A stretch of 54,514 bases of DNA. Source: Elusimicrobiota bacterium. GTDB taxonomy: Bacteria; Elusimicrobiota; Elusimicrobia; UBA1565. The stretch spans positions 1 to 54,514 of the forward strand of contig JBDREN010000105.1 in assembly GCA_043819795.1 (NCBI GenBank), in the 5' to 3' direction. Position 1 is the first letter of the stretch. The number at the start of each line of letters is the position of its first letter. Below the pieces are notes generated by a model. That model saw nothing but the letters and a program-made list of their open reading frames with translations, was not told the DNA's origin and did no database searches. Both the position numbers and the translations under genes were made by a program. Positions 1 to 54,514 of this stretch are shown one piece after another.

Positions 1-950
1 TTTGATGCTCACCCCGTTCGTCGAGGCGGTGTTGTTCGCGTCCTGGTCGTCATCGTCGGCCGAAGCGCTCAGGTCCGCGCCCTCCCCGTCCACGGCCACG
101 GCCACGGGGCACGGCCCGGCCAGGCCGGAGAGTCCGTCCGCGCACTCGAAGCGCACCTCCACGTCGACGTTGCTCCAGCCTTCCAGACCCGTGCCGGGAG
201 CGCTCGAGGCCGTGATGACCGGCGGGGTCCGGTCGATTTTGATCCCCTCCAGCGTCGCCGACGCGCTGTTCCCGGCCAGGTCCGCGACCTCGCCCGATGC
301 GCTAAGGTCCGCCCCCTCGCCCTCCACGGTCTCGGAGCCGGGACAGGCTCCCTCGGCCAGGCCCGAGCCGTTGTCGGAGCAGGCGAAGCTCACCGTCACG
401 TCGCCGCTGCTCCAGCCATCCTGCCCCGTCGCTGCGGAGCGCGAGGCCGTGATGCTGGGCGCCGTCCGGTCGATCTTGATCCCCTCAAGCGTCACCGACG
501 CGACGTTTCCGGCCAGGTCGGCCACCTCGCCCGACGCGCTCAGGTCCGCGCCCTCGCCCTCCACGGTCACGTCGCCGGGGCATGCGCCTTCGGCCAGGCC
601 CGAGCCGTCGTCGGAGCACACAAACGTCACCGTCACGTCCCCGTTGCTCCACCCATCCTGGCCCGTGGCCGCCGAGCTCGACGCCGCGATGGCGGGAAGC
701 ATCCGGTCGATTTTGATCCCCTCGAGCGTCACCGACGCGCTGTTGCCGGCCAGGTCGACGACCGTGGTCGAGAAGCTCAGCTCCGCGCCCTCGCCCGCGA
801 CCGGCTGCGGGTCCGCGCACGCGGGCTCGGGCAGGCCGTGGTTGTCGGAGCACTCCAACGTGATCGCCACGTCCCCGTTGCTCCAGCCATCCTGGCCCGT
901 GCCCGGCGCGCTGGAGACCACGACGGTGGGAGGCGTCATGTCGATCGTCA
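1..950 (-). repeat. At least 4 tandem ~237-bp (79-aa) Ig-like (OmpL47-type, DxAGN-containing) domain repeats at the C-terminal end of the visible giant ORF; the array may continue beyond the window
   Basis: Minus-frame translation gives repeated units ...TAPSITASRSAATGQDGWSSGDVTVSFACSDNGSGLAEGACPG..VEGEGADLSASGEVADLAGNSASATLEGIKIDR... The plus shadow ORF 2..1033 shows the same 79-aa periodicity. Confidence 0.7.
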
Positions 951-12900: not shown

Positions 12901-15900
12901 GTGGCTGACCATCTGCCCGCCGAAATTACCCAAACGGAGGCTGGAGGCGTCCCCTATGTCGACGCGATAGGACGTTTCCGACTCGGACCGGATGTAGCCG
13001 TCGGTGTACGGCCCGCTGTCGCCCGACGTGGACGGCGAGGAGACCGTGACCTCCGTCTGCGTGAAGCCCTCCACCGCGCTCCCGGCCGGCTTCGCCGCCA
13101 GCGTCCACGTGTAGCTCAGGGGCTGGCCGTCCGCGTCGGTGCTCCCGCTCCCGTCCATCGTGGCCACGGCCCACTGCGGCAGCTCCACGTCCGGCCCCGC
13201 GTCCGCCACCGGCGCGTTGTTGGCCGGCCGCAGGAAGTAGCTCACGCGCCTGGAGTTCGTGTCCGCGATGGCCATGTTCCCCTGGGGGTCGAAGGCCACG
13301 CCATGGCACCCGTTCAAGCTGGCCGCGGTCGGGGGCCAGGTTTCCCCGGTGGAGGTGAAATCGGCCTTTCCGACCACGCGCGAGGCGGACATGCCGTTCG
13401 AGAACGGCGGCCTGAACTCGAGGGCGCGGCCCACGTTCTCGGCCTCCACGACCCAGAGGCTGCCTTGCGCGTCGAACCCCACGTCCCGCGGATAGCGGAA
13501 CCGGCTCGCTTTGGTGTCGGCGACACTGGAGGTGAAGTTGTCCTGGCCGATGACCAGGTCCGCGCTCATCCCGCTGGCGAAAGGCGGGGAGAAGCGCATG
13601 ACGCGCCGGTTGTCGTTCTCGGCGACCCATAGGTTCCCCTCGGAGTCGAACGCCAGGCCGCGGGGCGAGTAGAGCGTGCTCGCGGTGGTGCCGTAGCCGC
13701 CTATGATGACGTCGGCGCTCATGCCGGTGCTCAGGGGCGCCTTGAAGCGGACCACGCGGTAGTTGCCCGTATCCGCCACCCACAGGTTCCCGTCCGGGTC
13801 GACGGCCACGCCCCAGGGGCCGGAGAGCTGGTCCGGGGCCCCGCCGGCGCCCCCCCAGCCGAAGTCCGCCCTGCCGATGACCATGTCCGCGTCCATCCTG
13901 TCCGTGAAGGGGGGGGTGAACCGCAGGACGCGGTGGTCCCTGTTGTCCACCACCCAGAGCCTTCCCGTGGAGTCGAACGCCATGCCCCTCGGCCAGAAGA
14001 ACCTGTTCGCCCCGCCGTAGCCGAAGCCGCCCAGAACGAGCGAGGCGTCCATGCCCCCGGCGAGCGGAGCGTCGTAGCGCAGCACCTCGCTCTTGCCCCA
14101 GTCGCTGACCCAGAGGTTTCCGGCGCTGTCGAACGCGACGGAATACGGATTGGACGAGCCCGCGTAGCTGGCGAAGTCCGGCTGGCCCACCACCAGCCCG
14201 GCCTCCTGGCCGTTCTGGAAAGCCCCGTCCGCGGCCGGAGGCAGGGCGTTCACGGTGAGCTCCAACGTATCCTCGACCGTGCCTCCCTCCCGGCCGTCCG
14301 AGACGGTCAGCCGCACCATGTAGATGCCCGCGGAATCCGCCACGAAGGCCGCCGTGGTTTCGCCCGGCCGCTGATGGACGACCGGAGCGCTGCCCTGGGG
14401 CGCGGACGCGACCCCCCATGTCAGCGTGACGGGGTCTCCATCGGCGTCGGCGCCGCTGCCGTCGACGACCACGAGCGCTCCCCGCGTCACCGTCTGGTCC
14501 GCGCCGGCCTCCGCCGTGGGCGGAGTGTTCGGAGGCAGCGTCGTCGCGCCCCCGAGGTCCGTGAAGGGCGTCTCCTCGGCGGTCTGGCCCTTGGCTTTGA
14601 CCCGGGCGTAATAAGCCGTATCCGAATCGAGCCCCGCGAAGGCGTGGCCGGCGTCCGTGATCCATCCGCTCTCCATCGGCGCCCCCGCGAAGCCGGGGTC
14701 GGCGGAGAGCTGCGCGAGGTACTGCACGCCCGCGGGATTCCCCGCCGCCGCCCACCTCACGGTGAGGGCATGGGCATCCAGGTGCGGGAAATCGTCAAGC
14801 GCCCCGGCGAAGGCCACCAGCCGCGCGTTGTTCCAATCGGCGACCCACAGGAGCCCCTCGTGGAAGGCGATCCCTATGGGGCTGGTCATACTGGCCGGAC
14901 CGCTGCCCCAGGCCCCGGAGACGAAATCGGTCTGCCCCAGCACCGAGGTGGCCGGCATGCCGTTGAAAAGGGGCGGGTCGAAGACGAGGACGCGGTGGGT
15001 GATGTTGTCGGACAAGAATACCTTGCCGGAGGGGTCGAACGCGATCCCGAGCGGGCAGCGCATGGTCGTCTGGTTGTCGTAGTAGTTGCTGACGACGAAA
15101 TCCCCCTGCCCCAGGACCAGAGCGGCGTCCATGCCGTCGGCGAAAGGCGGGCTGAACATGAGCGCCCGGTAGTTGCCGTTGTCCGCCACCCACACGTTGC
15201 CCGACGCGTCCACCGCGACCTGGAAGGCCCAGCGCATCCTGTTTCCGGCGCGGGCCTCGCCGCCCGAGGTGAAGTCCGCCTGGCCCAGGACCAAAGAAGC
15301 GTCCATCCCGTCCGAGAAGGGGGGGGTGAACTCGAGCACCCGGTTGTTGTAGGCGTCGGCCACCCACACGTTGCCGGAGGCGTCGGCCGCCACGTCGAAG
15401 GGCTGGTTCATCCCGCTCCGGGTCGTGGCCTCGCAGCAGGCGGTGAAGTCGGGCTGGCCGAGGACGACCGACGCGTCCATGCCGGACTCGAAGGGAGGGC
15501 TGAACATGAGCACCCGATGGTTGGATCTGTCCGCGACCCATAGGTTGCCGGAGGGGTCGAAGGCGAGGCCCATGGGCATCGAAAGCCTGTCGCGGTCCCG
15601 GCCGGCGGTGGAGGACGTGAGGTCCTCCTGCCCCAGGACGATCGTGGCGGCCCGGAGGCCGTCGTGCGGCGGCGGGAACATGGTCACGCGGTTGTGCTGT
15701 CCGTCCGCCACCCAGAGGTTGCCGGAGGAATCGAACGCGATGTCGGCGGGAGTGTAGACGCTGGTCGCGCTCGGCCCGAAACGGCTGACCGTGTCCAGGC
15801 CGGCTTGCCCCAGCACGGCCGCCTCCTCCTGCCCGTCCTCGAAGCGATAGAAAGGCGCGGGGGCTTGCGCCGGCGTGTATCCGCTCGTCGGGGCGGAAAA

Positions 15901-18900
15901 GCCGCTCTGCCCGAAGGGATTGGAGGCGATGACCCGGAGGTGATACTGGGTGTCGGGGGAGAGGTAGGTGGCCTTCGCGGCGTTCGTCCGCGAAGCGTAC
16001 GACAGGACCTCTCCCGAGAACGCCGGCGAGACCGAAGCCTGGAGCGTGTAGGACTCCGCGCCGGAGGAGGCGTCCCATCGGGCCTCGAGCGACGTCGCCG
16101 AGGCGCCGACGATCTGCAGCCCGGCGGGCGTCTGCGGAGGCACGGGCGTCGCCCCGACGGCGGTGGCGAAGGCGGTGGGGACCCCGGCCGAGGACTGCGC
16201 CCGCGGATCGGTCTCGGCGCCCTCCCCGTTGACGGCCCGGACGCGGACGGAGTATTCGGTCTCTGGCTCCAATCCGTCGATCGTGGCGCTGGCGGCGGTG
16301 TGGGCGTCGTCGAAGGATATCGCCACCACGTCGTGCGCCGCGAAGCCGTCCTTCGAATAGCTCACCTCGTAGCGGGTATGGCCCGGGTTGGACGCGTCGC
16401 CCCACGAAACGGAGAGGCTGGTCAATCCGGCCGGGGCGACCGTCAAATCCGCGGGGGGGTTGGCGTGGGTGTAGGCGTGCGGGTCATCCGAGAACGGCCC
16501 GGGGACGCCGGACTGGTCGAAGCTCACCACGGACCAGTGGTAGTGGGTGTTGGGCGCGAGGCCCGGGCCCGCGTCGTTCGAGGAGCTCCCCGGGTGGGGC
16601 ACGTCCGGCTCGACGCGGGTCAGCTCGGGGTCGGTCAACGAGGCGAAGGGATGGTCCCCGGCCGCCCGGTAGACGGCGTATTTGCCGACGTTCGGCTCGG
16701 TCCGCGGGGTCCAGCTCACCGTCGCCTCGCCGGGCCCCTGGACGCTCACGCTCACGGCGGTCACGGCCTCGGGCGGAGCGGCGGCCTTGAGCGCGAAGCT
16801 CTCGGTGGCCGTCTGGCCGTCGTTGTTGGTCGCGGTGAACTCGATCCGGTTGAGCGTCTCGGAAGGCGCCAGCCCCGTGATGCCCGCGACGGTCAGATAA
16901 TGCGGGTCCTTGTCCGTCGTCCCGCCGGAGGCCGGCTCCATGCTGAGTCCGGAGTCCGGAACTTCGGCATAGTGCGCGCCCCCGTCGACGGTGTAGCGGG
17001 CCGAGAAGGCGCCGCCCGCCTCGATCGCGAAGTCCGCGAAGTCCGCGAAGTCCTGCGCGATCTCCGCGGGGCTTCGGGCCGCGCCCAGGATGCGGAAGCT
17101 GTCGACGATCCCCCAGTTCTGGGTTCCTCCCCCGGCGTTGCCGATGTAGTTCACGTCCTGCGTCAGCTTGACCGAAGAGGTGCCCACGTGGTCCGCGTCG
17201 ATGTAGAAGAGGGTCTGGCCGCCGGTGCCGACCGCCGTCAGAAGGTGCCAGCCGGACAACGGGTCGACGTCGTAGTTGCAGGAATAGAACGCCCCGCTAT
17301 AGACGCCGAGAAGGCCGTCGTTCCGGACGAGGACGTGATGGTAGTTCGGCCCGTACTGGGTCAAGGTCCGCCAGCTGCCGTGGCTGGCCAGCGGGAATCT
17401 GGTCCAGGCCTGAATGGTCCAGTCCGAGCCCATCGGGACATCGGGGACGGAGACGTAGTCGGAGGAACTGTCGAAATTCAGGGCCTTGCCGAAGAGCCCC
17501 TCGGTCCACGCCGGAGGCCCGTTGAGGCTGCCGTTCTCGCCGTTGCCGGACGCGTCCGAGACCGAGGTCCCCGTCCCTTCGTCGAACTGCCACAGGCCCC
17601 TCGTCTGCCCGGCGACGGCCCCGAGCGGAGCGCCCGTGGCGACCATGGTCTCGCTCGGACGGTCCGCGAAGTCCTCCGCGATCTCCTCGGGAGTCCGGGC
17701 CGCGTCCAGGATGCGCACGCTGTCGACGGAACCCCAATTCTGGGTTCCTCCCCCGGCGTTGCCGATGTAGTTCACGTCCTGCGTCAGCTTGACCGAAGAG
17801 GTGCCCACGTGGTCCGCGTCGATGTAGAAGAGCGTCTGGCTGCCGGTGCCCACCGCCGTCAGAAGGTGCCAGCCGGACAATGGGTCGACGTCGTAGTTGC
17901 AGGAATAGAACGCCGCGCTATAGACCCCGAGAAGGCCGTCGTTGCGCACGAGGATGTGATGATAGTTCGGCCCGTACTGGGTCAAGGTCCGCCAGCTGCC
18001 GTTGCTCGCCAGCGGGAATTTGGTCCAGGCCTGAATGGTCCATTCGGAGCCCATCGGGATGTCGGGGACGCTGACGTAGTCGGAGGAGCTGTCGAAATCC
18101 AGGGCCTTGCCGAAGAGCCCGTCCGTCCACGCCGGAGGCCCGCTGAGGCTTCCGTTCGCACCGTTGCCCGAGGAGTCCGCCGCCGAGGCCCCGCTTCCCT
18201 CGTCGAACTGCCACAGGCCTCTCGTGTGTTCGGCGACGGCCCCGAGCGGAGCGCCCGCGGCCCCCGGCGCGGTCACGGTCGCGCGCGCGTAGTCCTCGTG
18301 GATCTGCTCCGCGGTGGCGGAGTAGTTCAGGATGCGCATCTCGTCCAGGAGCCCTTCATAGTACCCGTAGTAGTAGCTGAAACCGGAGACGGCGGCCGAG
18401 GGATAGACATTCGCTCTGGGGCTGGTCAAGCCGGTCCGCACCAGGGCCCCGTTGACGTACAGGTGCGGCCGCTTGTCCGCGTAGACCACCGCGATGTGCG
18501 TCCAGCCCGAGATGGCGGCGTTGTACACGAGCAAAGAAGGGATGTATTGGTGCCCGTGCTCGAAGACGCTGATCCCGTCGGTCCCGACCGAGACCCCCGC
18601 TCCCGCGTCGGCTCCCACGAATCCTCCGTGCACCGGGGCGATCGCGTAGCGCTGTCCCGAGAGCCCGGCATAGCCGGAGGTGGATTCCGCGGTGGCGCTC
18701 CGGGTCGCGGCGGGATAGGCCCAGAACTCGATCGTGAAGTTGTTGGGGGCGCCGGTGAGCAGGCCCCCGGCTCCGGCGCAGTCGTCTATCCCGTCGAAGG
18801 AAAGGGCCTCTCCGACCTTGCCGGCGGCCCACCCCGTCCCGTTCTGGAGGGTGAAGGCCGCTCCGTTTCCGGAGGCCTCCGAGGCCGCGGTCCCGGAGCC

Positions 18901-19182
18901 CTCGTCGAAATGCCAGAGGCCCAGGGTCCCCGGGATGTTCCGGAGCCGCGCGTCCGAGAGCCTGAGCCCCACGGCGGGGTCATGGGCCGTGATCCGGGCG
19001 GAATGGCTGATTCCGGCCGGAGAAGACGGCAGCATGGCGGTGTCCGCGCTCGCCCATTGCCCATCGGAGCCCAGGACCTGGGGGGAGGAGAACTCCAGCG
19101 CGGACGCGCGCGCTCCCCAAAGCACGCTGGCCGCGACCAGGACGACCGTCGACTGCAGCTTCCAATGTCTTTCGGATTTCAT
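1..19182 (-). CDS. Giant secreted multidomain surface/adhesin-like protein, 5' end complete, 3' end runs off window start (>6,390 codons): signal peptide, 3x LamG (concanavalin A-like), FN3 domains, PKD domains, Big_9/cadherin-like domains, >=6 NHL-type beta-propellers, C-terminal tandem ~79-aa Ig-like domains
   Basis: ATG at 19182 gives MKSERHWKLQSTVVLVAASVLWGARASA (signal peptide) with an AGGGA SD-like motif upstream. No minus-strand ORF in this frame (first base = 0 mod 3) is reported anywhere between 1 and 19182, so there is no in-frame stop; the chance ORF length at this GC is ~50 codons. Spot translations at ~18780-19080, 15661-15720, 9541-9600, 7141-7200, 6421-6480, 3241-3420 and 781-1380 all give coherent domain sequence. 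Examples: LWHFDEGSGTAASEASGNG...ALSFDGIDD (LamG), NLWVADGQHNRVTMFPPP (NHL), DLAGNSASVTLEGIKID (Ig-like). The track omits it because it has no stop within the window. Confidence 0.85.
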   Translation of the reverse strand, partial: MKSERHWKLQSTVVLVAASVLWGARASALEFSSPQVLGSDGQWASADTAMLPSSPAGISHSARITAHDPAVGLRLSDARLRNIPGTLGLWHFDEGSGTAASEASGNGAAFTLQNGTGWAAGKVGEALSFDGIDDCAGAGGLLTGAPNNFTIEFWAYPAATRSATAESTSGYAGLSGQRYAIAPVHGGFVGADAGAGVSVGTDGISVFEHGHQYIPSLLVYNAAISGWTHIAVVYADKRPHLYVNGALVRTGLTSPRANVYPSAAVSGFSYYYGYYEGLLDEMRILNYSATAEQIHEDYARATVTAPGAAGAPLGAVAEHTRGLWQFDEGSGASAADSSGNGANGSLSGPPAWTDGLFGKALDFDSSSDYVSVPDIPMGSEWTIQAWTKFPLASNGSWRTLTQYGPNYHHILVRNDGLLGVYSAAFYSCNYDVDPLSGWHLLTAVGTGSQTLFYIDADHVGTSSVKLTQDVNYIGNAGGGTQNWGSVDSVRILDAARTPEEIAEDFADRPSETMVATGAPLGAVAGQTRGLWQFDEGTGTSVSDASGNGENGSLNGPPAWTEGLFGKALNFDSSSDYVSVPDVPMGSDWTIQAWTRFPLASHGSWRTLTQYGPNYHHVLVRNDGLLGVYSGAFYSCNYDVDPLSGWHLLTAVGTGGQTLFYIDADHVGTSSVKLTQDVNYIGNAGGGTQNWGIVDSFRILGAARSPAEIAQDFADFADFAIEAGGAFSARYTVDGGAHYAEVPDSGLSMEPASGGTTDKDPHYLTVAGITGLAPSETLNRIEFTATNNDGQTATESFALKAAAPPEAVTAVSVSVQGPGEATVSWTPRTEPNVGKYAVYRAAGDHPFASLTDPELTRVEPDVPHPGSSSNDAGPGLAPNTHYHWSVVSFDQSGVPGPFSDDPHAYTHANPPADLTVAPAGLTSLSVSWGDASNPGHTRYEVSYSKDGFAAHDVVAISFDDAHTAASATIDGLEPETEYSVRVRAVNGEGAETDPRAQSSAGVPTAFATAVGATPVPPQTPAGLQIVGASATSLEARWDASSGAESYTLQASVSPAFSGEVLSYASRTNAAKATYLSPDTQYHLRVIASNPFGQSGFSAPTSGYTPAQAPAPFYRFEDGQEEAAVLGQAGLDTVSRFGPSATSVYTPADIAFDSSGNLWVADGQHNRVTMFPPPHDGLRAATIVLGQEDLTSSTAGRDRDRLSMPMGLAFDPSGNLWVADRSNHRVLMFSPPFESGMDASVVLGQPDFTACCEATTRSGMNQPFDVAADASGNVWVADAYNNRVLEFTPPFSDGMDASLVLGQADFTSGGEARAGNRMRWAFQVAVDASGNVWVADNGNYRALMFSPPFADGMDAALVLGQGDFVVSNYYDNQTTMRCPLGIAFDPSGKVFLSDNITHRVLVFDPPLFNGMPATSVLGQTDFVSGAWGSGPASMTSPIGIAFHEGLLWVADWNNARLVAFAGALDDFPHLDAHALTVRWAAAGNPAGVQYLAQLSADPGFAGAPMESGWITDAGHAFAGLDSDTAYYARVKAKGQTAEETPFTDLGGATTLPPNTPPTAEAGADQTVTRGALVVVDGSGADADGDPVTLTWGVASAPQGSAPVVHQRPGETTAAFVADSAGIYMVRLTVSDGREGGTVEDTLELTVNALPPAADGAFQNGQEAGLVVGQPDFASYAGSSNPYSVAFDSAGNLWVSDWGKSEVLRYDAPLAGGMDASLVLGGFGYGGANRFFWPRGMAFDSTGRLWVVDNRDHRVLRFTPPFTDRMDADMVIGRADFGWGGAGGAPDQLSGPWGVAVDPDGNLWVADTGNYRVVRFKAPLSTGMSADVIIGGYGTTASTLYSPRGLAFDSEGNLWVAENDNRRVMRFSPPFASGMSADLVIGQDNFTSSVADTKASRFRYPRDVGFDAQGSLWVVEAENVGRALEFRPPFSNGMSASRVVGKADFTSTGETWPPTAASLNGCHGVAFDPQGNMAIADTNSRRVSYFLRPANNAPVADAGPDVELPQWAVATMDGSGSTDADGQPLSYTWTLAAKPAGSAVEGFTQTEVTVSSPSTSGDSGPYTDGYIRSESETSYRVDIGDASSLRLGNFGGQMVSHVYVGFDASFISPGASIVKATLKMYVWGGYLAEIGPAIVDLVDFGEALEFEDDSEPALVSNAATFLSEDYPAAGYHPVDVTEAVREALSSGLVPQFRIRAANEYAVGAQRLVYFSPSERSAAERPLLEITISPAWNRAQFQADAYGAYELQLTVSDGSLSSVDTAVVTAVRNDRPVADAQTAQAVRDGALPITLTASDREGAELGFAIVSPPSHGTLEGTPPNVTYLPAPGYLGADGFSFKVNDGVVDSDEAAVGISVVPLPEAPPALLAQLPPSGAAGMHGSYELAADRSGNWYVGQHSCCIMKYDIRGDLLLKWGAGGGGAGQFGTIGGMAFDSAGNVYVAGASNHRVQKFDAGGNFLMQWGAQGSGDGQFETPTGIGVDAAGNVYVLENAGQRVQKFSSGGGFLGKWSVGAGMQALGVDSTGGVFVLGGGSLLKYDSSGNQLAAWSLHGEDANGLAVDRFDRVYAAYRPVPAEDPVVRKIKRFTSDGLLSAEWRTDSDYVGNLAVDASGIVYAGHWHGEGKVVRYTAEGGLIDEFGGTSPGSLAGPSGVAVDASGNVYVADTNHNQVQKFDPAGRFVARWGREEGYSGGGDGQFNRPMDVAVDGSGNMYVVDFYNCRVQKFDAGGNFATKWGGGCGSGDTQFYLPSGIAVDAGGNVYVMDQYNNKVKKFDPNGNLLASWGAPGAGNGEFDRPERVAVDASGNIVVADTRNHRVQVFDPNGVFLSKWGVPGDRNGQLEYPAGLALDSSGNVYLTDAGNPLDPGQNNSRVQKFDAAGGLLTTWGTLGTDAGEFRYARDAAVGPDGRVYVADNENNRVQVFGAGAPPPVAHAQAVETQEDAAVAITLTGTGQGLAYTVVSGPEHGSLSGAAPNLSYTPQSGYYGFDAVVFKVSAGGVESAPAAAAIVVRNADDPPSFDAIADQASPMDGPAETVPIGGVSAGYNDPESVGMSAVSSDPSVVPHPVITGAGAVRSLSYQPAPGRSGTVTVTVTADDGRPPGDTFSRSFAITVYEAAPAAPSGLGIAGATATSLEAEWATSAGAETYTVEASVAAGFTGEVLSQLVETNRASVIGLSPDTLYYVRVKAANSGGESSFCAAASGTTSVYAPAPYYSFQTGQAAQAVLGQADASSNAAFGPSRASINSPVDMAFDASGNLWVVEMENHRILMFEPPHTGLRDATLVLGQAGFDFIDAGVSERRFWYPESIAFDPHGNLWVADRQNNRVLMFKPPFGTDMAASLVLGQDSFTTRSYVYGNDLSRMYQPAGVAADGAGNVFVADRHNSRVLLFSPPFSNGMAATRIIAHYEYVARPASLYYPNHVAVDRLGRLWVADYNHNRAVRFSPPFEDGMSADLVLGNPDLYASDYQTTRTATKKTWGIAIDPTGKVFVGDETNHRVMVFDPPLSDGMPAAAALGQADFTSGASGLGPDRLDDPRGAAFHDGTLWVADYNNRRLLAFAGTLDNFPYVNTFSLVVRWAAPGNPPGTQYLVELSDDPGFPAPLQSGWITDTSHTFPGLRKETAYHARVKAKGQMGVETTYTLLGGTTTRSDNAPPAADAGPDRTVDQGELVVVEGGGSDPDGDPVSIAGWEIVSSPGGGPVLHHRAGETAAAFVADSLGVYTLRLTVSDGREGGTDQDTVEITAHAPPAASHGAFQNGQDASVVLGAPDYAAFGSVNALRTLFDGSGNVWMSDGSKHRVLRYDAPLGTGAEPSLVLGQENLADGGSGLAADRLNSPNGMAFDPAGRLWVADSGNNRVLRFTPPFGDGMDADLVLGQAGFEANAAGSGAGELDGPRDVGFDGNGRLWLADTRNHRVLRFSPDPLQGFSSAMSAELVIGQSDFGLSGAGTTAGAMNSPRAVAFDASGDLWVSERDNHRILRFRPDPVNGFSTGMSADLVIGQDGFTSNTRYPYGPTRLSYPDAIAFDAEGSLWVAGSDHSRVFGFRPPFETGMAASRVLGRTEFNTTGCGRSQSRICEVYGVAFDRLGNLAVADTGNYRVMYFVRPPNIAPVADAGPDLELPQWAVAMVDGSGSYDAEERPISYTWSILTKPAGSAVSGFTQTENVISTPGASGPYLDGYIQFAGATPDGVNTGYTLFAGDFGGNRPVRSFMGFDVSFMPPGATVERAILKLYVSSAYDVDIGPVIVDLVDFGDTLELTDDAQPPVLAGVATFLGSAVRGGYTSLDVTAAVREALSRGLAPQFRIRATNEVSIPTQELVYIVPAEGDAAQRPRLEITVSPPVDKAQFQADAYGTYEVRLTVSDGWLSTDDTALVTAVRNDRPVADPQTAQAVQNGARQITLTGSDNEGAALAFAVVTQPSNGTLEGTPPGVTYLPALGYLGGDGFTFTVNDGVVDSVPAAVNISVVPPPESPPPFLAQIPRKAVKFSAFKIATDNAGNIYVGQNYCCVHKHDPAGNHLKTFGSFRYLGGVGVDSSGDYVYVSDRDNNRIIKYDSEGNQLLTWGSAGTGNGQFNGGPFGIDVGADGNVYVGEYAGGARIQKFDAQGQFLKSWAGGNYIQSVAVDSRNDVYATGVSMGINRFDSEGNLLASWAAPGGYPDLAVDRFSRVYVVARQGEWPYYSGVKKYSSTGQLLKEWDAFNDPATTVNDATADIHVGPSGIVYVPNYSLNTVRQWDTEGGFIEDWGGGVDGSLNAPNAVAMDSSGNIYVADTNNDRIQKFDPMGRFLAKWGKAGGGHGSGDGEFYRPIDVAVDAAGNIYVADFYNYRIQKLGPTGEFITKWGNNGSGDGQFSLPSGLAVDSANNVYVADRNNRVQKFDSNGTFLLKWGSSGTGDGQFNEPKRIAVNASGNIVVSDPRNNRVQMFDPNGTFLGKWDSYGSRKGQIKYPYGVGTDSSGNVFITEPRNPYNPSDNNARVQKFDASGSHLTEWGGYGSGQGQFIDPLDVASGAGGRICVADAGNNRVQIFGSGVSFPAAEALSVQTQENTAVALTLRGTGQAPVYSVVSGPDHGSLSGTPPNLTYTPETGYYGFDYVRFKVSDGGLESDTALASIVVLNVNNPPFFDEIADQAAPMDGPEATVAITGVFAGYNDPETVSFSAVSSDPLIVPDPAITSSGDTRTLSYQPAAGRSGTVTITVTADDGQAQDSIFTRTFDITIYEGPPPAPTGLSASASGAGGLGFHWNAVASAQSYTLEVSASADFTGEVHTFRTDATSVDDGGFIPDTLYSARVQAVNSMGAGAFAGPASARTLASRPVPARSFETGQNADLVLGQVDFNTKEYCNVSNGQPATQTSMCGPIGVAFDTSGNLWVSDYFSNRVMRYDPLQAGGLQSASLVLGQPDFTSTGRGTDRRTFRNPYGIALDNAGNLWVADSENHRVLRFDRPFSTHMEASLVLGQADFTTTGAATTQSGFNRPIGVAVDASGRMWVADMMNNRVLRFSPPFSDHQAADLVLGQPDFTSSGVRHLGKDLYQPRGVSVDADGNIWVADGSHLRVLRFSPPSGNYEEPNLVLGKETFTSPFPTAPTQTNTYYTHSLAFDASGKAYVVDAGHHRVLVFEPPFSNGMPASTVLGQPDFQSEIYTTAQNRLDAPREMAFDGSGALWFADHSNRRVLSFEGTPDSFRDARSQRVTAAWGGNRNPPGTEYSAQLAADPGFASPMESGWITDLSHTFTGLDPETGYYARVKARNQDGIETPYTDLGGATTLPPNRPPTVDAGADQTVDVGDLVALSGTAFDEDPEDAVSYGWTLKDSAGDPVSVEGADTLTPSFTPQKADTYTAELAASDGKEDASDTALIHALGTFESADEVNGKPELSLTAALEIAISAVDTAGDGAYLLAASHSQDLFPVGRLYDVGPHGASLDPAGALRMCYDPQVLADNGVAAGEVFLYHYAEPAWQELSAALDEESGCLSAELSELASIFGLFAVDRTSPAVAAMVPAGALQNVASPQFALAFSDTGSGAAPATLTASLDGSPRDYFVLAEGAGSMTLLFGLGEEGQRIEGEPTAETTYAMAEGERAAAFEMADRTGNKGTASASVTIDMTPPTVVVSSAPGTGQDGWSNGDVAITLECSDNHGLPEPACADPQPVAGEGAELSFSTTVVDLAGNSASVTLEGIKIDRMLPAIAASSSAATGQDGWSNGDVTVTFVCSDDGSGLAEGACPGDVTVEGEGADLSASGEVADLAGNVASVTLEGIKIDRTAPSITASRSAATGQDGWSSGDVTVSFACSDNGSGLAEGACPGSETVEGEGADLSASGEVADLAGNSASATLEGIKIDRTPPVITASSAPGTGLEGWSNVDVEVRFECADGLSGLAGPCPVAVAVDGEGADLSASADDDDQDANNTASTNGVSIK
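1400..16000 (-). repeat. Intragenic tandem super-repeat of the giant gene, ~6.3-kb period (~2,100 aa): two full copies (~9,700-16,000 and ~3,400-9,700) plus a partial copy (~1,400-3,400). Each unit reads FN3 - NHL propeller - FN3-like - PKD - NHL propeller - PKD - lectin-like 'DLVDFG' module - Big_9 - NHL propeller (NHRVQKFD type) - Big_9
   Basis: DNA/protein correspondences at constant offsets of ~6,280-6,360: 15860<->9575<->3290 (FN3/'APAP(F/Y)Y' junction), 14533<->8335<->1975, 14290<->8030, 12619<->6316, 12510<->6210 (~75% nt identity where compared). The antisense shadow ORFs 1390..6207 and 9064..13632 are visibly homologous. Confidence 0.75.
17027..17053 (-). repeat. 9-bp x3 perfect tandem repeat (gcgaagtcc)3 encoding DFADFADFA inside the giant gene
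   Basis: Read directly in sequence. The corresponding position in the preceding LamG copy has a single EDFAD. Confidence 0.9.
17090..18340 (-). repeat. Near-identical tandem duplication (period ~621 bp = 207 aa) giving LamG domains 2 and 3 of the giant protein
   Basis: 17111-17290 closely matches 17731-17910 (e.g. gttctgggttcctcccccggcgttgccgatgtagttcacgtcctgcgtcagcttgaccgaagaggtgcccacgtggtccgcgtcgatgtagaagag in both). The minus shadow ORFs 17297..17737 and 17918..18214 are homologous. Confidence 0.8.
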
Positions 19183-19299
19183 ATCCCTACCCCCACTGCG
19201 AATACTCCGCTTCGAACAGCGAAAGCGACCCACGCCGGCTTCGCCAGGACCTTTCCGTCCGTTGATACCGCATATCGGTTCTCCTCAATTAGGGTAGCC

Positions 19300-19390
19300 G
19301 ACATTCTGGTCCTGGTCAATGACAACGCGTTGACTAGAACGTAAGATTTAGGCTTATAAATAAGGAAGTTTTTTTATTTGTCAGCAGAAT
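19300..19390. promoter_or_regulatory. AT-rich island (ttgactagaacgtaagatttaggcttataaataaggaagtttttttatttgtcagcag) ~120-200 bp upstream of the giant gene start; candidate promoter/UP region
   Basis: The local AT-richness is striking in a ~70% GC background. TTGACT...TATAAA on plus and CTGACA...TATAAG on minus have non-ideal spacing, so no confident -35/-10 pair. Confidence 0.3.
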
Positions 19391-19585
19391 TCAGTGCTCA
19401 GCAGAGGCCGGATCCGCGGATCGGCCGACATCGCCGCAGGACCGGGCTTTCCTCGTCGGAAGACTCTTTAGGATGCGGCGCGACGCACATGCGCGCGTCT
19501 TCAGACGGACTGGAAAATGTCAGCAGCCCGCCCCAAAAGAGGAGCTCCGGGCGGGGGGAAGCACCTGGCCGCCGGGCCGGCTCAC

Positions 19586-27927: not shown

Positions 27928-28037
27928 CCGATGAAAGAACGGCCTGCCGGGAAAGGAACGCCGGAAAACATGCGGCTTTCACATAGGCTGGCGCGGGGGC
28001 GGGGAGTGCGGCGCTGGCATCCGAAAGGGGAGGCGCG

Positions 28038-28475
28038 TTGCTGCCTCGGGTTCAGCAGGAGGGGCTGAGGACGTCGAGTCCGCCGCCTCCTGAGTCCCGT
28101 CGTGTGTCAGATGCAGGCTCTCGTCCTGATGATGATGAACCGGGCATGGTCAGTCGAGCGGTTTCCTTGGTCGGATCAAAAACGCGGCGAGGAAGCAGTT
28201 CCGCCAAAGACGATGGGTCTGGCTCAGGCTCATCGGACTCGAAGGGATTGGGCGCAGCCAAACGGGCGGCGCTGCATGGGGTAATATTCGGGGGCATTGT
28301 CGGTCTAGTAGCTGGGGGGGTCAGTCTTGGCCCCCCGGGCGCTGTCGGTGGAGGTCTCCTGGGCGTCGTCGTCGGGGCGGCGGTGGGGTGGTATTATGGC
28401 CACCATCATGACGCGATTTGGAGTGGAATAGGCAGGGATCTGAACGAGTTCGAACGGGACCAATTCGGGAACTAG
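28038..28475 (+). CDS. Small protein with hydrophilic Ser/Gly/Asp-rich N-terminal region and C-terminal glycine-zipper transmembrane segment
   Basis: TTG start with strong SD AAAGGGGAGG 5 nt upstream. C-terminus GVIFGGIVGLVAGGVSLGPPGAVGGGLLGVVVGAAVGWYYGHHHD has repeated GxxxG. Lower GC than the host. Confidence 0.55.
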   Translation: MLPRVQQEGLRTSSPPPPESRRVSDAGSRPDDDEPGMVSRAVSLVGSKTRRGSSSAKDDGSGSGSSDSKGLGAAKRAALHGVIFGGIVGLVAGGVSLGPPGAVGGGLLGVVVGAAVGWYYGHHHDAIWSGIGRDLNEFERDQFGN

Positions 28476-28482
28476 AAGAAAC

Positions 28483-28980
28483 TTGGCCGCATGGGGAGAA
28501 AGCGTGAAGGAAAACGTGACTACTGAAGCGACGATTAGGCTTAAGCGATTGGCCCGTTCATTCGCGGCGTTTGGCTTCTTTCTTATGGTCCCATGGGCGT
28601 CATATCTTTCAACTCTCCTTCTGATCAGGAACCGGGTGATTATTGATACTGATTCGGCGGCGTTACTGATTAAGGTTATAACAGCAGTAGCGATGATGTC
28701 GTTTTTCATGCTTCCCCTGCTCGTTCTTGCTTCATCTGCACAATTCTATTGGGCCTTTCGAGATAACTTGGCTTGGTCCAAGGTGCTTCGATTCGGAATG
28801 CTTCGGGGGTTGCCTATAATGGCTGGCATACTCATGGTGTTTGTCTTGTCATTGAAGGCCAGCGGAGCGGGGTGGTTGGCGTATCTTTTCTCTTTTGGAA
28901 TCGGCGTGATTATTTACTCAGTTTGGCTTATACGCAAGGACCAGGCAGTATTGGCTACTGAGACCAAGCAGGGAATATAG
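28483..28980 (+). CDS. Small 4-TM integral membrane protein (hypothetical; possible GTG start at 28504 with GGGAGA SD)
   Basis: Hydrophobic segments AAFGFFLMVPWASYLSTLLLI, ITAVAMMSFFMLPLLVLASS, GLPIMAGILMVFVLSL, WLAYLFSFGIGVIIYSVWLI. ~45% GC against ~70% flanks. Confidence 0.55.
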   Translation: MAAWGESVKENVTTEATIRLKRLARSFAAFGFFLMVPWASYLSTLLLIRNRVIIDTDSAALLIKVITAVAMMSFFMLPLLVLASSAQFYWAFRDNLAWSKVLRFGMLRGLPIMAGILMVFVLSLKASGAGWLAYLFSFGIGVIIYSVWLIRKDQAVLATETKQGI

Positions 28981-28991
28981 AGGCGGGGTCA

Positions 28992-29050
28992 GGCTTGACT
29001 TTCGGGACAAACCCGGGCGGCCCCGGCGAATACTTCCCGAAAGTCAAGCC
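28992..29050. repeat. Perfect 16-bp inverted repeat ggcttgactttcggga / tcccgaaagtcaagcc with 27-nt GC-rich spacer, immediately 3' of the 4-TM gene and abutting the right direct repeat
   Basis: Read in sequence. Candidate terminator or recombinase-binding palindrome. Confidence 0.8.
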
Positions 29051-33501: not shown

Positions 33502-34809
33502 TCAATCCTTCTTCAGCCAGTTTCTAATAGCCGGAAACGAAGTGATCCTATCTACCGAATCCTGCAGCGCTTGGTTCTGCTGCCGTAGCTGTCGGATCTC
33601 GTCCTGCATCGCGGCGACTTCTTCGGGCGTCATGCCCGGCTCTCCCTGCGGACCTTGAGGCCCGCCTGGCCCCGCTGGGCCAGTATCTCCAGTATCTCCT
33701 TTCAGACCGGCAGGACCTCGAGGGCCCGCCGGTCCTTCAGGACCGATCGGACCGGCGTCGCCCGTGTCTCCTTCGGGTCCGGCTGCGCCCGCGGGTCCCG
33801 CAGGGCCTTGGGTGCCCGGATTCGTAATGATCAGCGTATCTTTCGCTTTGGCCCCGAAATTGTCCATGACCGTGAGCTCGATCAGCTCTTCCGCATAACC
33901 GTGAGCGTTCATGGTGACAATGTCGCCTTCGGCGACAACGGGATTGTCCGCGTCGGAGAGGTTTCTCCACACCCAGTAGACGACCTCGCCATCCGGGTCA
34001 TAGGACAGACTCCCGTCCAGCGTTACCTCCTCGCCGGCGGAAGCTTTTACGTCCGGCCCCGCGTTTGCTATCGGCGGCTCGGTTTCCGCCACTTCATATC
34101 CTAGGCCCTGTAGACCATTTTGATAATACGCTTGGATCTCTTCCTGGGTCAAAGCCCGGTTGAAGATGGCCACTTCGTCGAGCAAGCCGTCGAAATAGCA
34201 TCCGGGAGATCCGCCTCTCCCGCCGATGAACAGCCTGCTTGTATGTGTTACTATCCTGGTCGAAAGCTCTGCTCCATAAAGAACCCCATCCAAATACAAT
34301 CTGATGTTGCTCCCGTCATATGTCCCGACGACGAAATGCCAGTTGCCGTCGTTGATATCCGCTCCTTCGGTGAATAGGATGTCGAAACCATTGGCATCGC
34401 CCACGAGCCAAGTCAATTCCGACGCGTCATTGTATTTAGTCCCAAGTCTATAACCATTTCGCCCATTATCATGAGCGGAAGAGACCATGTCATCATTGGC
34501 CCCGCCGTCGCTCTTGAACCAAACGGCGATGCTCGGATGCGCCACTCGGATAGGAGAGGCGGTCCCCAGGTCGACATAATCATTCGCGCCGTCGAAGCTC
34601 ATCGCTCCGCCGACTTGGCCATCGGCCCATATGGCGCCGTGGATCGTGCCATGGCTGTCGTAGCCGGAACTGTCAATCGCGACCGATCCAGAGCCCGCGT
34701 CAAGCCTCCAATACCCCATCATGCCTTCTTGTGCTTCGGCTGTCCCAGCCAGAGCTAGAAGCAGCATGACTCCAGCCGCCGACCCCAGTCTTTTCAGTGT
34801 TTTGGCCAT
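33502..34809 (-). CDS. Secreted LamG (concanavalin A-like) - PKD-like - collagen-like triple-helix (21 G-X-Y triplets) - C-terminal coiled-coil protein
   Basis: Start taken at the internal ATG 34809, with GGAG SD 8 nt upstream and signal peptide [26 protein letters not shown]. LamG: [22 protein letters not shown]...[17 protein letters not shown]-like: [29 protein letters not shown]. Collagen: [61 protein letters not shown]. Confidence 0.7.
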
Positions 34810-34866
34810 GGATGGGCTCCCTTCCAGCGATTCCGGTTTTCGCTTCCGAAAGTCTGCTGTCACCAG

Positions 34867-34895
34867 ATTATAGCCCCATGTCGCTGACAATTCAA
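34867..34895 (-). promoter_or_regulatory. Sigma-70-like promoter for the collagen-like gene: -35 TTGAAT, 17-nt spacer, -10 TATAAT (minus strand)
   Basis: Reverse complement of 34867-34895 reads TTGAATtgtcagcgacatggggcTATAAT, ~55 nt upstream of the ATG. Confidence 0.5.
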
Positions 34896-35101
34896 TGACA
34901 ACCCGGCGACACTGAATGAAAAATCCCTCTTGCTTTACAATCTCTTTTTCATCATGTCAGGGGCCAGGCCGGAAACTTTATCCGGAAGCCTGGCCCGATA
35001 TCCGGGGCAGCTTCGGTGGGGGGATGAAATCGCGCCCTTCGGGGGATCTTCGAGGCCGCGCGTGTCTGGAGACCTGCGGCGCGGATCGTCCGGCGTGCGG
35101 T

Positions 35102-40515: not shown

Positions 40516-40545
40516 TTGACATGGCGGGAAAGGGTAGGATATAAT
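40516..40545 (+). promoter_or_regulatory. Consensus sigma-70 promoter of the hrcA-grpE-dnaK-dnaJ operon: TTGACA (40516-40521), 18-nt spacer, TATAAT (40540-40545)
   Basis: Both hexamers are a perfect match to consensus, read directly. Confidence 0.8.
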
Positions 40546-52163: not shown

Positions 52164-53942
52164 GTGACGCCCCTTCTCATCCTCGAGGGGGGGCTCTGGC
52201 TGGCCGTCCTCGGGACGTCCCTCGCCTGGACGGACGCGCTCCTGGCGGAATACGTCCTGCCGAAACTCCTGCTTCTGTCGTTGGCCGTGCTCGTATGCGC
52301 CGTCGGCACGGCGCTCTCCCGGCGATCAGGGCCCCGGTTCGTCCGGCCGACGGCCTTGGACCCCCCCTTGCTTTGCGTCGGTGCTGCCCTGCTTCTGTCT
52401 ACGGCTTTCTCTCAAGATCGTCTTCTCAGCGTCCTGGGCCACTATAATTCCCACGTCCTCGGGGTCTGGCCGCTGCTTCTGTGTGCGGCCGTCTATTATT
52501 CCACGGCTTGGCGCGCGGGAGTCGGCGGCGTCAAGCGGGTTCTGCGGGTATGCCTCGTCGCCGGGGCCGTGGTGGGGGCCTATGCGCTTCTGCAGGCGGC
52601 CGGGTTGGAGGTCTTCCCGCGTGTAGCGAAGCTGCCTCAAGGACGGGCGATTTCAACGATCGGAGGCCCCGTATTCCTAGGCGCTTACCTCGCTGTTCTG
52701 CTGCCGTTGGCTCTGCATTGGTTCTTGTCTGGCGGTCGTGAGCGGGTCTTTGGAGGCGTCTGCGTCGCGTTGATGGCGGGAGGCCTGTGGGCCACGGCGT
52801 CCCGTGGTTCTTGGCTGGGGGCCGCCGCCGGATGCGTCGCGTATGGGGCGTTGCGCCACGGCTTCCGCCAGCCGCGTTGGAGCGGGAAGGAGTGGCTGTT
52901 CGCCGCTTGTCTGGTGGCGGTCCTGGGCGGCCTCGCCGTCCTCGGGCTCTCGACGCGGGATATCCGTTGGCATGAGGCTCCGCGACTGGAGATATGGAAG
53001 GCCGCAGTCCAGACCTTCCAGGGTGCGCCCCTTCTTGGTTCCGGACCGGACACCTTCGAGCTGGGTTTCCGGCGTTTTAGGACAGACCAGTTCATCAGAT
53101 GGGTCAATGTGCTCGTGTTTCAGATCCACGCTCACAACGACATCCTGCAGGCTCTTGCGACGACGGGGATCGTCGGATTCTCCTGCTGGCTTTTTCTGCT
53201 TGTCGGCTTGGTCCGGGCGGCGTTGCGGGGTCTCAGGGCGTCCGAGGGGAGGCTCCTGGCCGCGGCGCTCTCGGCAGGCCTCCTGAGCCTGTTCGTCCAC
53301 ATGAAGTTCAATCCCGCCGGGATCGGGGCTATCGTCGTGGCGGCGGTATTCGCCGGGCATTTGTGCCGCCCGACCGGGGAGGGAGCGTCGCCGCAGCCGG
53401 CCTTCTGGCTCGTTGGGGCGGTGCTGGCGTTGGGGATACTGTCGGTGAGCCTAGCCTCGCGCATGGTCTGGGCCGACCGCCAGATGAAGCGGGGCCTCGC
53501 GCATCAAAAGGTGGGAAACGAAGGGGTCGCGTACGCGTATTTCAAGTCCGCGGTCCGGTTGAACCGCTGCGAGCTGGAGTACCGCAGGCAGATCGTGAAC
53601 CACCTGATCGAATGGGCTTACGGGGGACCGGGCGGGGAAGTGCGCGCCGAACTGTTCGACGTCGCGGCCGGGCATGCCGCCACGGCCATGGACTGCCATC
53701 CGAACGACATGTATGCCCACTACATCCTCGGGGTGTCGTTGCTCATGCAGGCGCAGGCGGGCCGGAGCGAGCGGCTCGAGCCGGCTGAGAACGCGCTGGA
53801 CGAAGCTCTCCAGCGCGACTCTTTGTATCTGCCGCTCATCGAGGCCCGCCTGAGGGCCGCGCGCCTGCGCGGGGACCAAGCCTTGGCAGAGCGGCTTTCC
53901 TCGAGGGTCGAGTACGTCGAGTCCTTGATGCGTCCGGAGTAG
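52164..53942 (+). CDS. O-antigen ligase/polymerase (Wzy_C) family polytopic membrane protein with C-terminal TPR-like soluble domain
   Basis: GTG start; >=10 TM segments; Wzy_C-like motif …FQIHAHNDILQALATTGIVGF…; C-terminal helical repeats. Confidence 0.65.
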   Translation: MTPLLILEGGLWLAVLGTSLAWTDALLAEYVLPKLLLLSLAVLVCAVGTALSRRSGPRFVRPTALDPPLLCVGAALLLSTAFSQDRLLSVLGHYNSHVLGVWPLLLCAAVYYSTAWRAGVGGVKRVLRVCLVAGAVVGAYALLQAAGLEVFPRVAKLPQGRAISTIGGPVFLGAYLAVLLPLALHWFLSGGRERVFGGVCVALMAGGLWATASRGSWLGAAAGCVAYGALRHGFRQPRWSGKEWLFAACLVAVLGGLAVLGLSTRDIRWHEAPRLEIWKAAVQTFQGAPLLGSGPDTFELGFRRFRTDQFIRWVNVLVFQIHAHNDILQALATTGIVGFSCWLFLLVGLVRAALRGLRASEGRLLAAALSAGLLSLFVHMKFNPAGIGAIVVAAVFAGHLCRPTGEGASPQPAFWLVGAVLALGILSVSLASRMVWADRQMKRGLAHQKVGNEGVAYAYFKSAVRLNRCELEYRRQIVNHLIEWAYGGPGGEVRAELFDVAAGHAATAMDCHPNDMYAHYILGVSLLMQAQAGRSERLEPAENALDEALQRDSLYLPLIEARLRAARLRGDQALAERLSSRVEYVESLMRPE

Positions 53943-53998
53943 GGGACCCAACGGTGGGCCTACGGACGGCCGGTTCCTCATAGGAAAGGCCCTCCCGC

Positions 53999-54039
53999 CG
54001 TCCCGATGCCTCCGATCACCCCGGACCGCGCGGCGCCAT
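53999..54039 (+). repeat. Direct repeat copy B (gtcccgatgcctccgatcaccccggaccgcgcggcgcc); in frame with the Wzy-like gene's stop, it would encode …VPMPPITPDRAAP* then TAG
   Basis: Same as copy A, read in sequence. Confidence 0.8.
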
Positions 54040-54151
54040 AGAAGCTTCTGCCGCGGTCTTGGACCGCGCATGCGAGCGCTCGCGGCGCGGAAGCCTTCCA
54101 CGTCTGGGTCCCGCGGGCAAGGGGCCGCGGGACGGAAGCCTTCGACGGGAG

Positions 54152-54246
54152 GGTGTGACTTTAGTCACACAAAATCGGGGACACACACAAAATCGGTTGA
54201 CAACACAAAATCGGGCCTTGACAGTGTTCGACGGTACTGCTAGACT
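54152..54246 (+). promoter_or_regulatory. Iteron-like regulatory region: inverted repeat GTGTGACT-tt-AGTCACAC (54152-54169), three direct repeats CACAAAATCGG at 54167/54186/54204 (18-19 bp period), then promoter TTGACA (54218-54223)-N17-TAGACT (54241-54246)
   Basis: All elements read directly. Located ~25 nt upstream of ATG 54271 of a secreted-protein gene. Confidence 0.6.
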
Positions 54247-54270
54247 TTGATTTGTCGCAATCTGAAACAT

Positions 54271-54514
54271 ATGCTTGTGCCTGCGTTTAACGCCGAGAAT
54301 GCAGGAGGCCGGTCCGCATATCGGGCCGCGCCTTTCATCCTTTTTTCCCTTTTTCTAGCGCTTCCGGCCGGGACGGCCGGCGCGGCGGTAACGATCACCT
54401 CGCTGACGGGTAAGGCGGAAGTCCGCGACCCCGCCGTCTCTCCCCTCATCTGGAACGGGGTGACGGTCAACTACATGATGAAGGACGGCGAGGAGATCCG
54501 CACCTCCCGCCGCT
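54271..54514 (+). CDS. Hypothetical secreted protein, 5' end (runs off window end)
   Basis: MLVPAFNAENAGGRSAYRAAPFILFSLFLALPAGTAGAAVTITSLTGKAEVRDPAVSPLIWNGVTVNYMMKDGEEIRTSRR…; signal-peptide-like h-region; not in the track because it has no stop inside the window. Confidence 0.45.
   Translation, partial: MLVPAFNAENAGGRSAYRAAPFILFSLFLALPAGTAGAAVTITSLTGKAEVRDPAVSPLIWNGVTVNYMMKDGEEIRTSRR

Follow-up and report, generated by a model that had tools for sequence, protein, structure and literature searches.

A conserved palindromic operator and a probable tandem triplication at the promoter of a FecR-domain protein gene in an uncultured Elusimicrobiota bacterium

The question raised by this locus is which of the repeated elements crowded in front of a single gene takes part in the control of its promoter, and how those that do not came to be there. 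The window, by which we mean the whole stretch of 54,514 nucleotides that was analyzed, constitutes one complete contig from the chromosome of an Elusimicrobiota MAG, and the repeats are found approximately 300 bp from its end. The original prediction, which was made from the letters of the DNA, described an inverted repeat followed by three direct repeats that run into a promoter, called the arrangement iteron-like, and attributed it to a multimeric factor that binds the direct repeats.

Regarding the promoter, the predicted TTGACA-N17-TAGACT was present, agreed with the consensus at 10/12 positions, and was the sole match in 53000-54514 (shuffles 0.2), while both strands of the whole window held seven sites with at least 10/12 positions, this promoter among them (shuffles 0-1). 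We fetched 80 metagenome loci encoding the FecR family and located the best promoter before the gene in each. In approximately 35 orthologous loci, TTGACA-N17-TA(n)ACT, often with TGn, was found at positions ranging from 8 nt inside to 62 nt before the estimated start of the gene, and mostly not more than 30 nt upstream of it. In the window, transcription is predicted to start at approximately 54253 (54252-54254). The open reading frame that follows is annotated by NCBI as the partial protein ABII00_08380, has a GC3 of 0.77, and its 81 codons align to residues 1-80 of the FecR family PF04773, which identifies it as an orthologue in a family with 193 matches throughout Elusimicrobiota. The N-terminus of the protein carries an AEN motif and then a signal peptide, and the gene had been correctly described as one for a secreted protein. 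These comparisons support the assignment of the locus as a genuine sigma-70-type promoter of the gene for a secreted FecR-domain protein; its dependence on an activator is uncertain, given the consensus -35 and the extended -10. The features of the region are collected in Table 1.

Table 1. Coordinates of the features at and upstream of the FecR-domain protein gene, numbered from the first nucleotide of the window.
Feature	Position	Strand	Remarks
Wzy_C O-antigen-ligase-like membrane protein with TPR tail	52164..53942	+	Pfam PF04932, E 2e-17; 100% identical to a protein of an NCBI Elusimicrobiota MAG
15-mer copy 1, CGGAAGCCTTCCACG	54088..54102	+	
GC-rich hairpin, GTCCCGCGG-gcaagggg-CCGCGGGAC	54108..54133	+	9-bp stem, 8-nt loop, no T-tract after it
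15-mer copy 2, CGGAAGCCTTCGACG	54133..54147	+	14/15 identical to copy 1, 45 bp apart
Perfect 8+8 palindrome, GTGTGACT-tt-AGTCACAC	54153..54170	.	core TGTGA-N6-TCACA at 54154-54169, centre 54161.5
Repeat core 1, ACACAAAATCGG	54167..54178	+	overlaps right arm of palindrome; GGACAC next
Repeat core 2, ACACAAAATCGG	54185..54196	+	
TTGACA inside unit 2	54197..54202	+	no usable -10 at 16-18 nt (GACAGT at 17); not reported by promoter scans
Repeat core 3, ACACAAAATCGG	54203..54214	+	A-tract at about -46 to -43; GCC between core 3 and -35
-35, TTGACA	54218..54223	+	kept in orthologues
Extended -10, TGc-TAGACT	54238..54246	+	TG at 54238-39, TAGACT at 54241-46; TGc and TAnnCT kept in L062 and L063
FecR-domain secreted protein gene, 5' part	54271..54514	+	ATG at 54271; cut by contig end; alternative start GTG at 54277 (NCBI)

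The contig carries hrcA-grpE-dnaK-dnaJ, rsmE, genes for a radical-SAM enzyme and a HIT protein, dnaG, rpoD, a 96-aa open reading frame, the Wzy_C/TPR gene, which is the upstream neighbor of the FecR gene on the same strand, and the truncated gene last. In the closest relative, locus L062, a Wzy gene (51% identical) is followed by a divergent MS-channel-like gene, a 569-aa FecR-domain protein (PF04773), a 416-aa protein, and a giant protein of 9,301 aa, while the closest syntenic relative is locus L063 (JBDRPD010000096 of GCA_043827405.1). No closer relatives were found in the databases searched, with Wzy homologues of at most 51% identity and the 81-aa FecR N-terminus retrieving itself alone. 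No regulator gene was found beside the locus within the window, and cNMP-binding and HTH_Crp domains were absent from the 20 window proteins that were scanned. The upstream neighbors in relatives were either rpoD with a small open reading frame or the divergent MS-channel-like gene, and no regulator recurred across the loci; a divergent receiver-domain-like open reading frame upstream in L089 was not recurrent in the others. Two independent MAG contigs, namely, the window (at 54514) and that of L063 (at L063:8073), end 150-240 nt into the 5' part of the orthologous FecR gene, and paralogous FecR-domain copies or strain variation may have disrupted assembly at this point.

The palindrome, which was present as predicted, was conserved together with the promoter. 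A site resembling TGTGAC-N4-GTCACA lies just upstream of the promoter in the same set of approximately 35 orthologous loci, and a position weight matrix (PWM) was built from 25 of these orthologous sites, the TGTGAC left half of which exceeded 0.9 at each position. The palindrome was by far the top match to this matrix in the window, with 23-26 bits against 14.4 for the next. When sites with a PWM score of at least 10 were considered, the gap between the end of the operator and the -35 was 0 bp in 13 loci, 10-11 bp in seven, and 1, 4, 15, 21, 23 (L062), 25 (L063), and 57 bp in one locus each, and these classes mostly correspond to zero, one, or two helical turns. A gap of 48 bp was found in the window only. 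Expressed relative to predicted transcription starts, the sites in relatives are centred at approximately -43.5, approximately -54.5, and -66 to -68, versus approximately -91.5 for the palindrome of the window, which is 4.6 turns from -43.5. The direct repeats were not conserved in these loci, and in the window the array occupies an insertion of approximately 36 bp. Thus, the part of the original prediction that placed a regulator site at this promoter was upheld, while the assignment of that site to the direct repeats was not; as judged from the orthologous sequences, the operator that has been conserved at this locus is the palindrome.

The same element stands before a second gene of the cluster. 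Sites with at most two mismatches to the operator consensus were found 36 times in 458 kb of related loci (shuffles 10-17 in total), 18 of them not more than 160 nt upstream of the FecR start, 13 at 2.8-3.3 kb downstream, immediately ahead of the giant gene, and five elsewhere. The recurrence of the operator at giant-gene promoters, with 31 of the 36 near-consensus sites at FecR and giant-gene promoters, argues for a real regulatory element. In 12 of 27 loci, the operator site of the giant-gene promoter is followed at 22-24 nt, mostly 23, by a -10-like hexamer, with a poor -35 after the operator (TGGCAA, TAGCGC, and similar). This geometry equals that of the gap-0 FecR promoters (6 + 17 nt), with the site centred at approximately -43.5, and the giant-gene promoter looks activator-dependent, with a putative regulator in common with the FecR promoter. 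Individual sites of the form TGTGACnnnn[G/A]TCAC[A/C] precede the giant gene at L062:6449-6464 and also in L066, L067, L070, L072, L073, L080, L083, L086, L087, L089, and L092. A dyad operator of fixed geometry that is common to the promoters of the FecR gene and the adjacent giant gene (approximately 9,000 aa) in uncultured Elusimicrobiota represents a more useful lead than the repeat array, and provides a testable handle on the regulation of the giant-gene locus.

The operator resembles those of CRP/FNR promoters. The consensus of E. coli CRP is TGTGA-N6-TCACA, and its sites are centred at -41.5 in class II promoters and at -61.5 to -92.5 in class I promoters. The window contains a perfect TGTGA-N6-TCACA dyad, and the site of some relatives directly adjoins the -35 or takes its place, ending 23 nt before the -10, while in others it is found one or two helical turns further upstream. 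Promoters of class II activators of the CRP/FNR type have a dyad in such a position next to or instead of the -35, and we infer that the operator would be bound by a dimeric factor of this family. In contrast to the known promoters, C rather than T follows TGTGA, the centre in relatives is at approximately -43.5 rather than -41.5, and the site in the window, at approximately -91.5, is out of phase with the usual positions of the family.

Considering the direct repeats themselves, three exact copies of CACAAAATCGG were confirmed at 54168, 54186, and 54204, and the core that is identical among the units is the 12-nt ACACAAAATCGG. Successive units are spaced by exactly 18 and 18 bp, instead of the 18-19 bp given in the original prediction, and the last core, which had been described as touching the -35, stops three nucleotides (GCC) short of it, and is thus close only. 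The 36 core positions are identical, whereas the tails of 6-9 nt differ by approximately 4-5 substitution or indel events, and the indels have left the 18-bp period intact. Each tail resembles a -35: core 1 is followed by GGACA, core 2 by TTGACA, and core 3 by GCC-TTGACA, in which TTGACA is the real -35. Two other origins for the array were rejected. A coding repeat, which the length of the unit (18 nt, six codons; RFCV / TQNR / TKSG) brings to mind, was ruled out by the GC content at codon positions, since the reading frames through the repeats have a GC3 of 0.53-0.62 versus 0.8-0.95 for genes, and by the lack of a Pfam match. An RNA element was rejected at the locus because Rfam matches were all sub-threshold, the fold was not significant, and there were no tRNAs. 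A similarity of 16/22 positions between 54141-62 and 54227-48 is, by our estimate, expected by chance.

The explanation that we prefer, with a probability of approximately 0.58, is that the array arose when the stretch reaching from the regulator site as far as the -35 was triplicated in tandem in this lineage. In a MAFFT alignment, the relatives are gapped by 33-37 nt exactly beneath units 1 and 2. If two 18-bp units are taken out, what remains is TCACA-CAAAATCGGGCC-TTGACA with a gap of 12 bp (48 minus 36), and the reduced promoter matches the common gap class of 10-11 bp. The TTGACA inside unit 2 (54197) may be interpreted as the leftover of a duplicated -35.

The triplication would have proceeded from an ancestral layout in which the TGTGAC-N4-GTCACA dyad occupied a fixed helical face at 0, approximately 11, or approximately 21-25 bp before a near-consensus -35 and -10. 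A segment of 18 bp, starting with the ACA at the outer end of the operator's right arm and extending to the ACA of the -35, would then have been multiplied to three tandem units, each of which may be approximated as ACACAAAATCGG, 0-3 further nt, and TTGACA. A -35 with a matching -10 would have been retained in the 3'-most unit alone, while the copy in unit 2 was left without a -10 and the copy in unit 1 decayed to GGACA. A unit that extends from ACA to ACA and carries -35-like tails suggests microhomology-mediated tandem duplication, a mechanism that we infer, together with its effect on expression, from the present-day arrangement. As a consequence, the operator would have been displaced from approximately -55 to approximately -91.5, i.e., by 36 bp or approximately 3.4 helical turns, with a rotation of approximately 150 degrees, and the duplication probably weakened or re-tuned the coupling between the regulator and RNA polymerase, while transcription would still be driven by a strong core promoter with an extended -10 and a proximal A-tract. 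If so, the repeat array itself represents a minor lineage-specific promoter rearrangement, and the window may be regarded as a natural spacing mutant in which the operator is shifted by 36 bp.

In other loci, the same upstream zone carries independent tandem duplications, namely, in L129 (two operators, period 17), L079 (period 15), L104 (period 21), L114, and L115. In the first four of these loci, it is the operator that is tandemly duplicated, in two or three copies with periods of 15-21 bp directly upstream of the FecR -35 (L129:~2770-2805, L079:~2745-2780, L104:760-796, and L114:~2850-2895), whereas the window has a single operator and has duplicated the spacer and the flank of the -35.

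Some features argue against a triplication. The cores are identical and evenly spaced while the tails have diverged, which hints, although weakly, at selection of the kind expected for protein-binding sites (rough p of approximately 0.01-0.02, with the core defined post hoc). In addition, the gap of 48 bp and those of the common classes differ in helical phase, which would be odd if the operator still has to function. A functional role of the cores as a module, either as the operator of a direct-repeat regulator or as a spacer of variable copy number that switches the expression of the FecR and giant-surface-protein locus, is accordingly to be kept in mind as a possibility with the odds clearly against it; if true, it would place a second, lineage-specific layer of control above the phylum-wide CRP/FNR-like operator.

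The first form of this idea, which we hold to be unlikely, is that a lineage-specific regulator uses the three ACACAAAATCGG cores as its operator, assembling as an oligomer on direct repeats, perhaps in concert with the palindrome-binding factor, and controls the promoter by covering the DNA up to the -35. Besides the perfect cores at an exact period between diverged spacers, and the proximity of core 3 to the -35, it may be noted that the CACA with which every core starts is also the outer part of the half-site TCACA of the operator, and that the spacer of L063 carries AAAATCC and ATTTCGGC at the equivalent place; such remnants could mean that the motif predates a recent duplication. On the other side, there is no second array and no lone exact copy of CACAAAATCGG in the 54.5 kb of the contig, and when two mismatches were allowed, the window held 10 matches, the three exact copies included and seven elsewhere, versus a shuffle mean of 8.7, which is the chance level. 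The 10-mers of the core were absent from the rest of the window and from 458 kb of related loci; in orthologous promoters, the core with at most two mismatches gave 18 matches versus 7 in shuffles, but these were scattered and driven by A-tracts. A GTDB-wide scan (596 Gb) for two cores within 30 nt retrieved 61 loci, none of which was from Elusimicrobiota. Furthermore, the array coincides with the insertion relative to the relatives and bears remnants of the -35, and no regulator gene is located nearby.

The 61 GTDB loci were rejected as evidence of a shared motif because they are unrelated tandem repeats with other periods and tails from unrelated phyla, and, by our estimate, any 11-mer would gather a similar number of tandem-repeat matches in 596 Gb. 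A subgroup with ACAAAATCGGGGTCAGGTCTT, which resembles core 1 and its tail at 15/16 positions, was likewise judged coincidental, as its periods and tails differ and it comes from proteobacteria, Sumerlaeota, and an unclassified 'uncultured bacterium' MAG. Arrays of a (C)ACAAAATCGGGGT unit that end in GGGGTCAGGTCTT(G)C were observed in L003, L016, L017, L047, L056, and L058, from the same three sources; the terminal motif GGGGTCAGGTCTT(G)C is present in the inverted orientation too in L058, and the array of L047 comes after a 35-aa peptide, MSRPLRIQYAGALYHVTSRGNER. We take this peptide to be the N-terminus of an IS200-like or REP-associated tyrosine transposase; the fragment had no Pfam or NCBIfam match. 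In Bacteroidales (L002, L024, L026-L029, L037, L041, and L055), arrays of (aa)ctgCACAAAATCGGca... with a period of 32 or 33 lie in AT-rich intergenic DNA and are unrelated to the window; a short inverted repeat often encloses their motif.

The second form, to which we give little credence, is a contingency spacer, in which the number of units varies within the population by slippage or recombination and alters the distance and helical face between the activator site and the promoter, thereby switching or tuning the expression of the locus of the FecR and giant surface proteins. A precedent exists in Neisseria nadA, in which a tract of TAAA repeats upstream of the promoter changes the spacing between regulator and promoter. 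As in nadA, the tandem repeats of the window are placed exactly between a regulator site, here a conserved one of the activator type, and the core promoter of a gene or locus for a secreted or surface protein; their copy number sets the distance and helical phase, one unit corresponding to a shift of approximately 0.7 turn, and other lineages show repeated duplication of this zone. However, the unit of the window is 18 bp long versus 1-7 bp in such tracts, and there are only three units, the tails of which are not identical, a combination that disfavors frequent slippage; moreover, the databases hold no close relative with another copy number.

An effect of the A-tracts in the cores, through UP-element-like contacts with the alpha subunit or as promoter boosters acting by DNA shape, with the repetition being incidental, also appears improbable. 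In E. coli, the proximal UP subsite lies at approximately -46 to -43, which is the position of the AAAA of the proximal core, and the gap-0 relatives have GAAA at about the same place. However, the alpha-CTD can reach the proximal copy alone; the 18-bp period puts the A-tracts on different helical faces, from which no coherent bend is expected, and the motif is not conserved in orthologues.

Replication-origin iterons, or alternatively the terminus of a mobile element or a dispersed repeat, are extremely improbable: although an inverted repeat with three direct repeats at even intervals behind it has the geometry of a Rep operator with iterons, the array is approximately 300 bp from a contig end, and arrays such as ACAAAATCGGGGTCA exist in other phyla, the array is bounded by an operator and a -35/-10 that are conserved in orthologues and by the FecR gene, it stands on a housekeeping chromosome with no rep or transposase gene, no DnaA box (TTWTNCACA, whole window), and a lowest local GC of only 46-47%, similarity to plasmids or phages and a second copy in the window were both lacking, and the GTDB arrays differ in period and tails and come from unrelated phyla. 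The term iteron-like is hence retained as a geometric resemblance only. As in plasmids with a RepA of the pPS10, pSC101, F, or R6K type, the inverted repeat shares a few bases with the first of the evenly spaced repeats of 17-22 bp and the whole overlaps a promoter, and three units with an 18-bp period fall within the definition of iterons as at least three regular direct repeats of 17-22 bp; the differences are that the window is chromosomal, without an AT-rich unwinding element, and that its palindrome is conserved and its repeats are not. A dispersed repetitive element, which had been named as the finding that would overturn the first interpretation, is not indicated either, since neither the window nor the 458 kb of relatives contained another copy, and the array is flanked by the conserved operator and the conserved -35.

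Upstream of the palindrome, the hairpin with a 9-bp stem was present as described, and the pair of 15-mers, CGGAAGCCTTC[C/G]ACG, was recovered with the first copy at its predicted position, 54088, and the second at 54133 instead of 54131. The hairpin and the 15-mers are each unique in the window, the 15-mers flank the hairpin, and we estimate a chance expectation of approximately 0.04 for such a pair in a region of 615 nt. These elements were absent in the relatives, among them L063, in which the palindrome follows the Wzy stop codon after just 27 nt, and the fold of 53935-54160 was not significantly better than those of shuffles (z -1.7). The hairpin may be a factor-independent stop or a stabilizer for the Wzy mRNA, which we offer as a guess. 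An origin of this region as a remnant of the MS-channel gene of L062 was dismissed because tblastn found no trace of it.

Several other observations were made in the window. A giant open reading frame of at least 6,410 codons (GC3 0.91) occupies 4-19233 on the minus strand, with its start near 19181-19233, and runs past the left contig end; an AT-rich stretch lies upstream of it at 19300-19400. It showed no similarity to the giant protein of L062 (first approximately 700 aa) or to the 416-aa neighbor of that protein. Very large genes are frequent in Elusimicrobiota (bioRxiv 10.1101/2023.11.21.568195). A perfect consensus promoter, TTGACA-N18-TATAAT, was found at 40516-40545, approximately 50 nt before hrcA (40595), and presumably drives the heat-shock operon; its perfect match implies that the organism uses the canonical sigma-70 consensus. 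The segments 28001-29000 and 34001-35000 have a GC content of approximately 55% versus approximately 68% overall and contain no open reading frame with a strong coding signature, and three promoter-like sites are located on the minus strand at 34152-34895.

At the extreme 5' end of the FecR orthologues, the sequence (A)CGCCGAG(A/G)A is conserved, at 54289-54300 in the window and 28-49 nt past the -10 in L062-L119. It encodes an N-terminal T/N-A-E-N(-R) motif before the signal peptide, and the called frame of L062 reads it differently; a role at the nucleotide level is conceivable. The starts of the giant genes carry a similar sequence, ACCGAGAAC, which encodes T-T-E-N-R-R.
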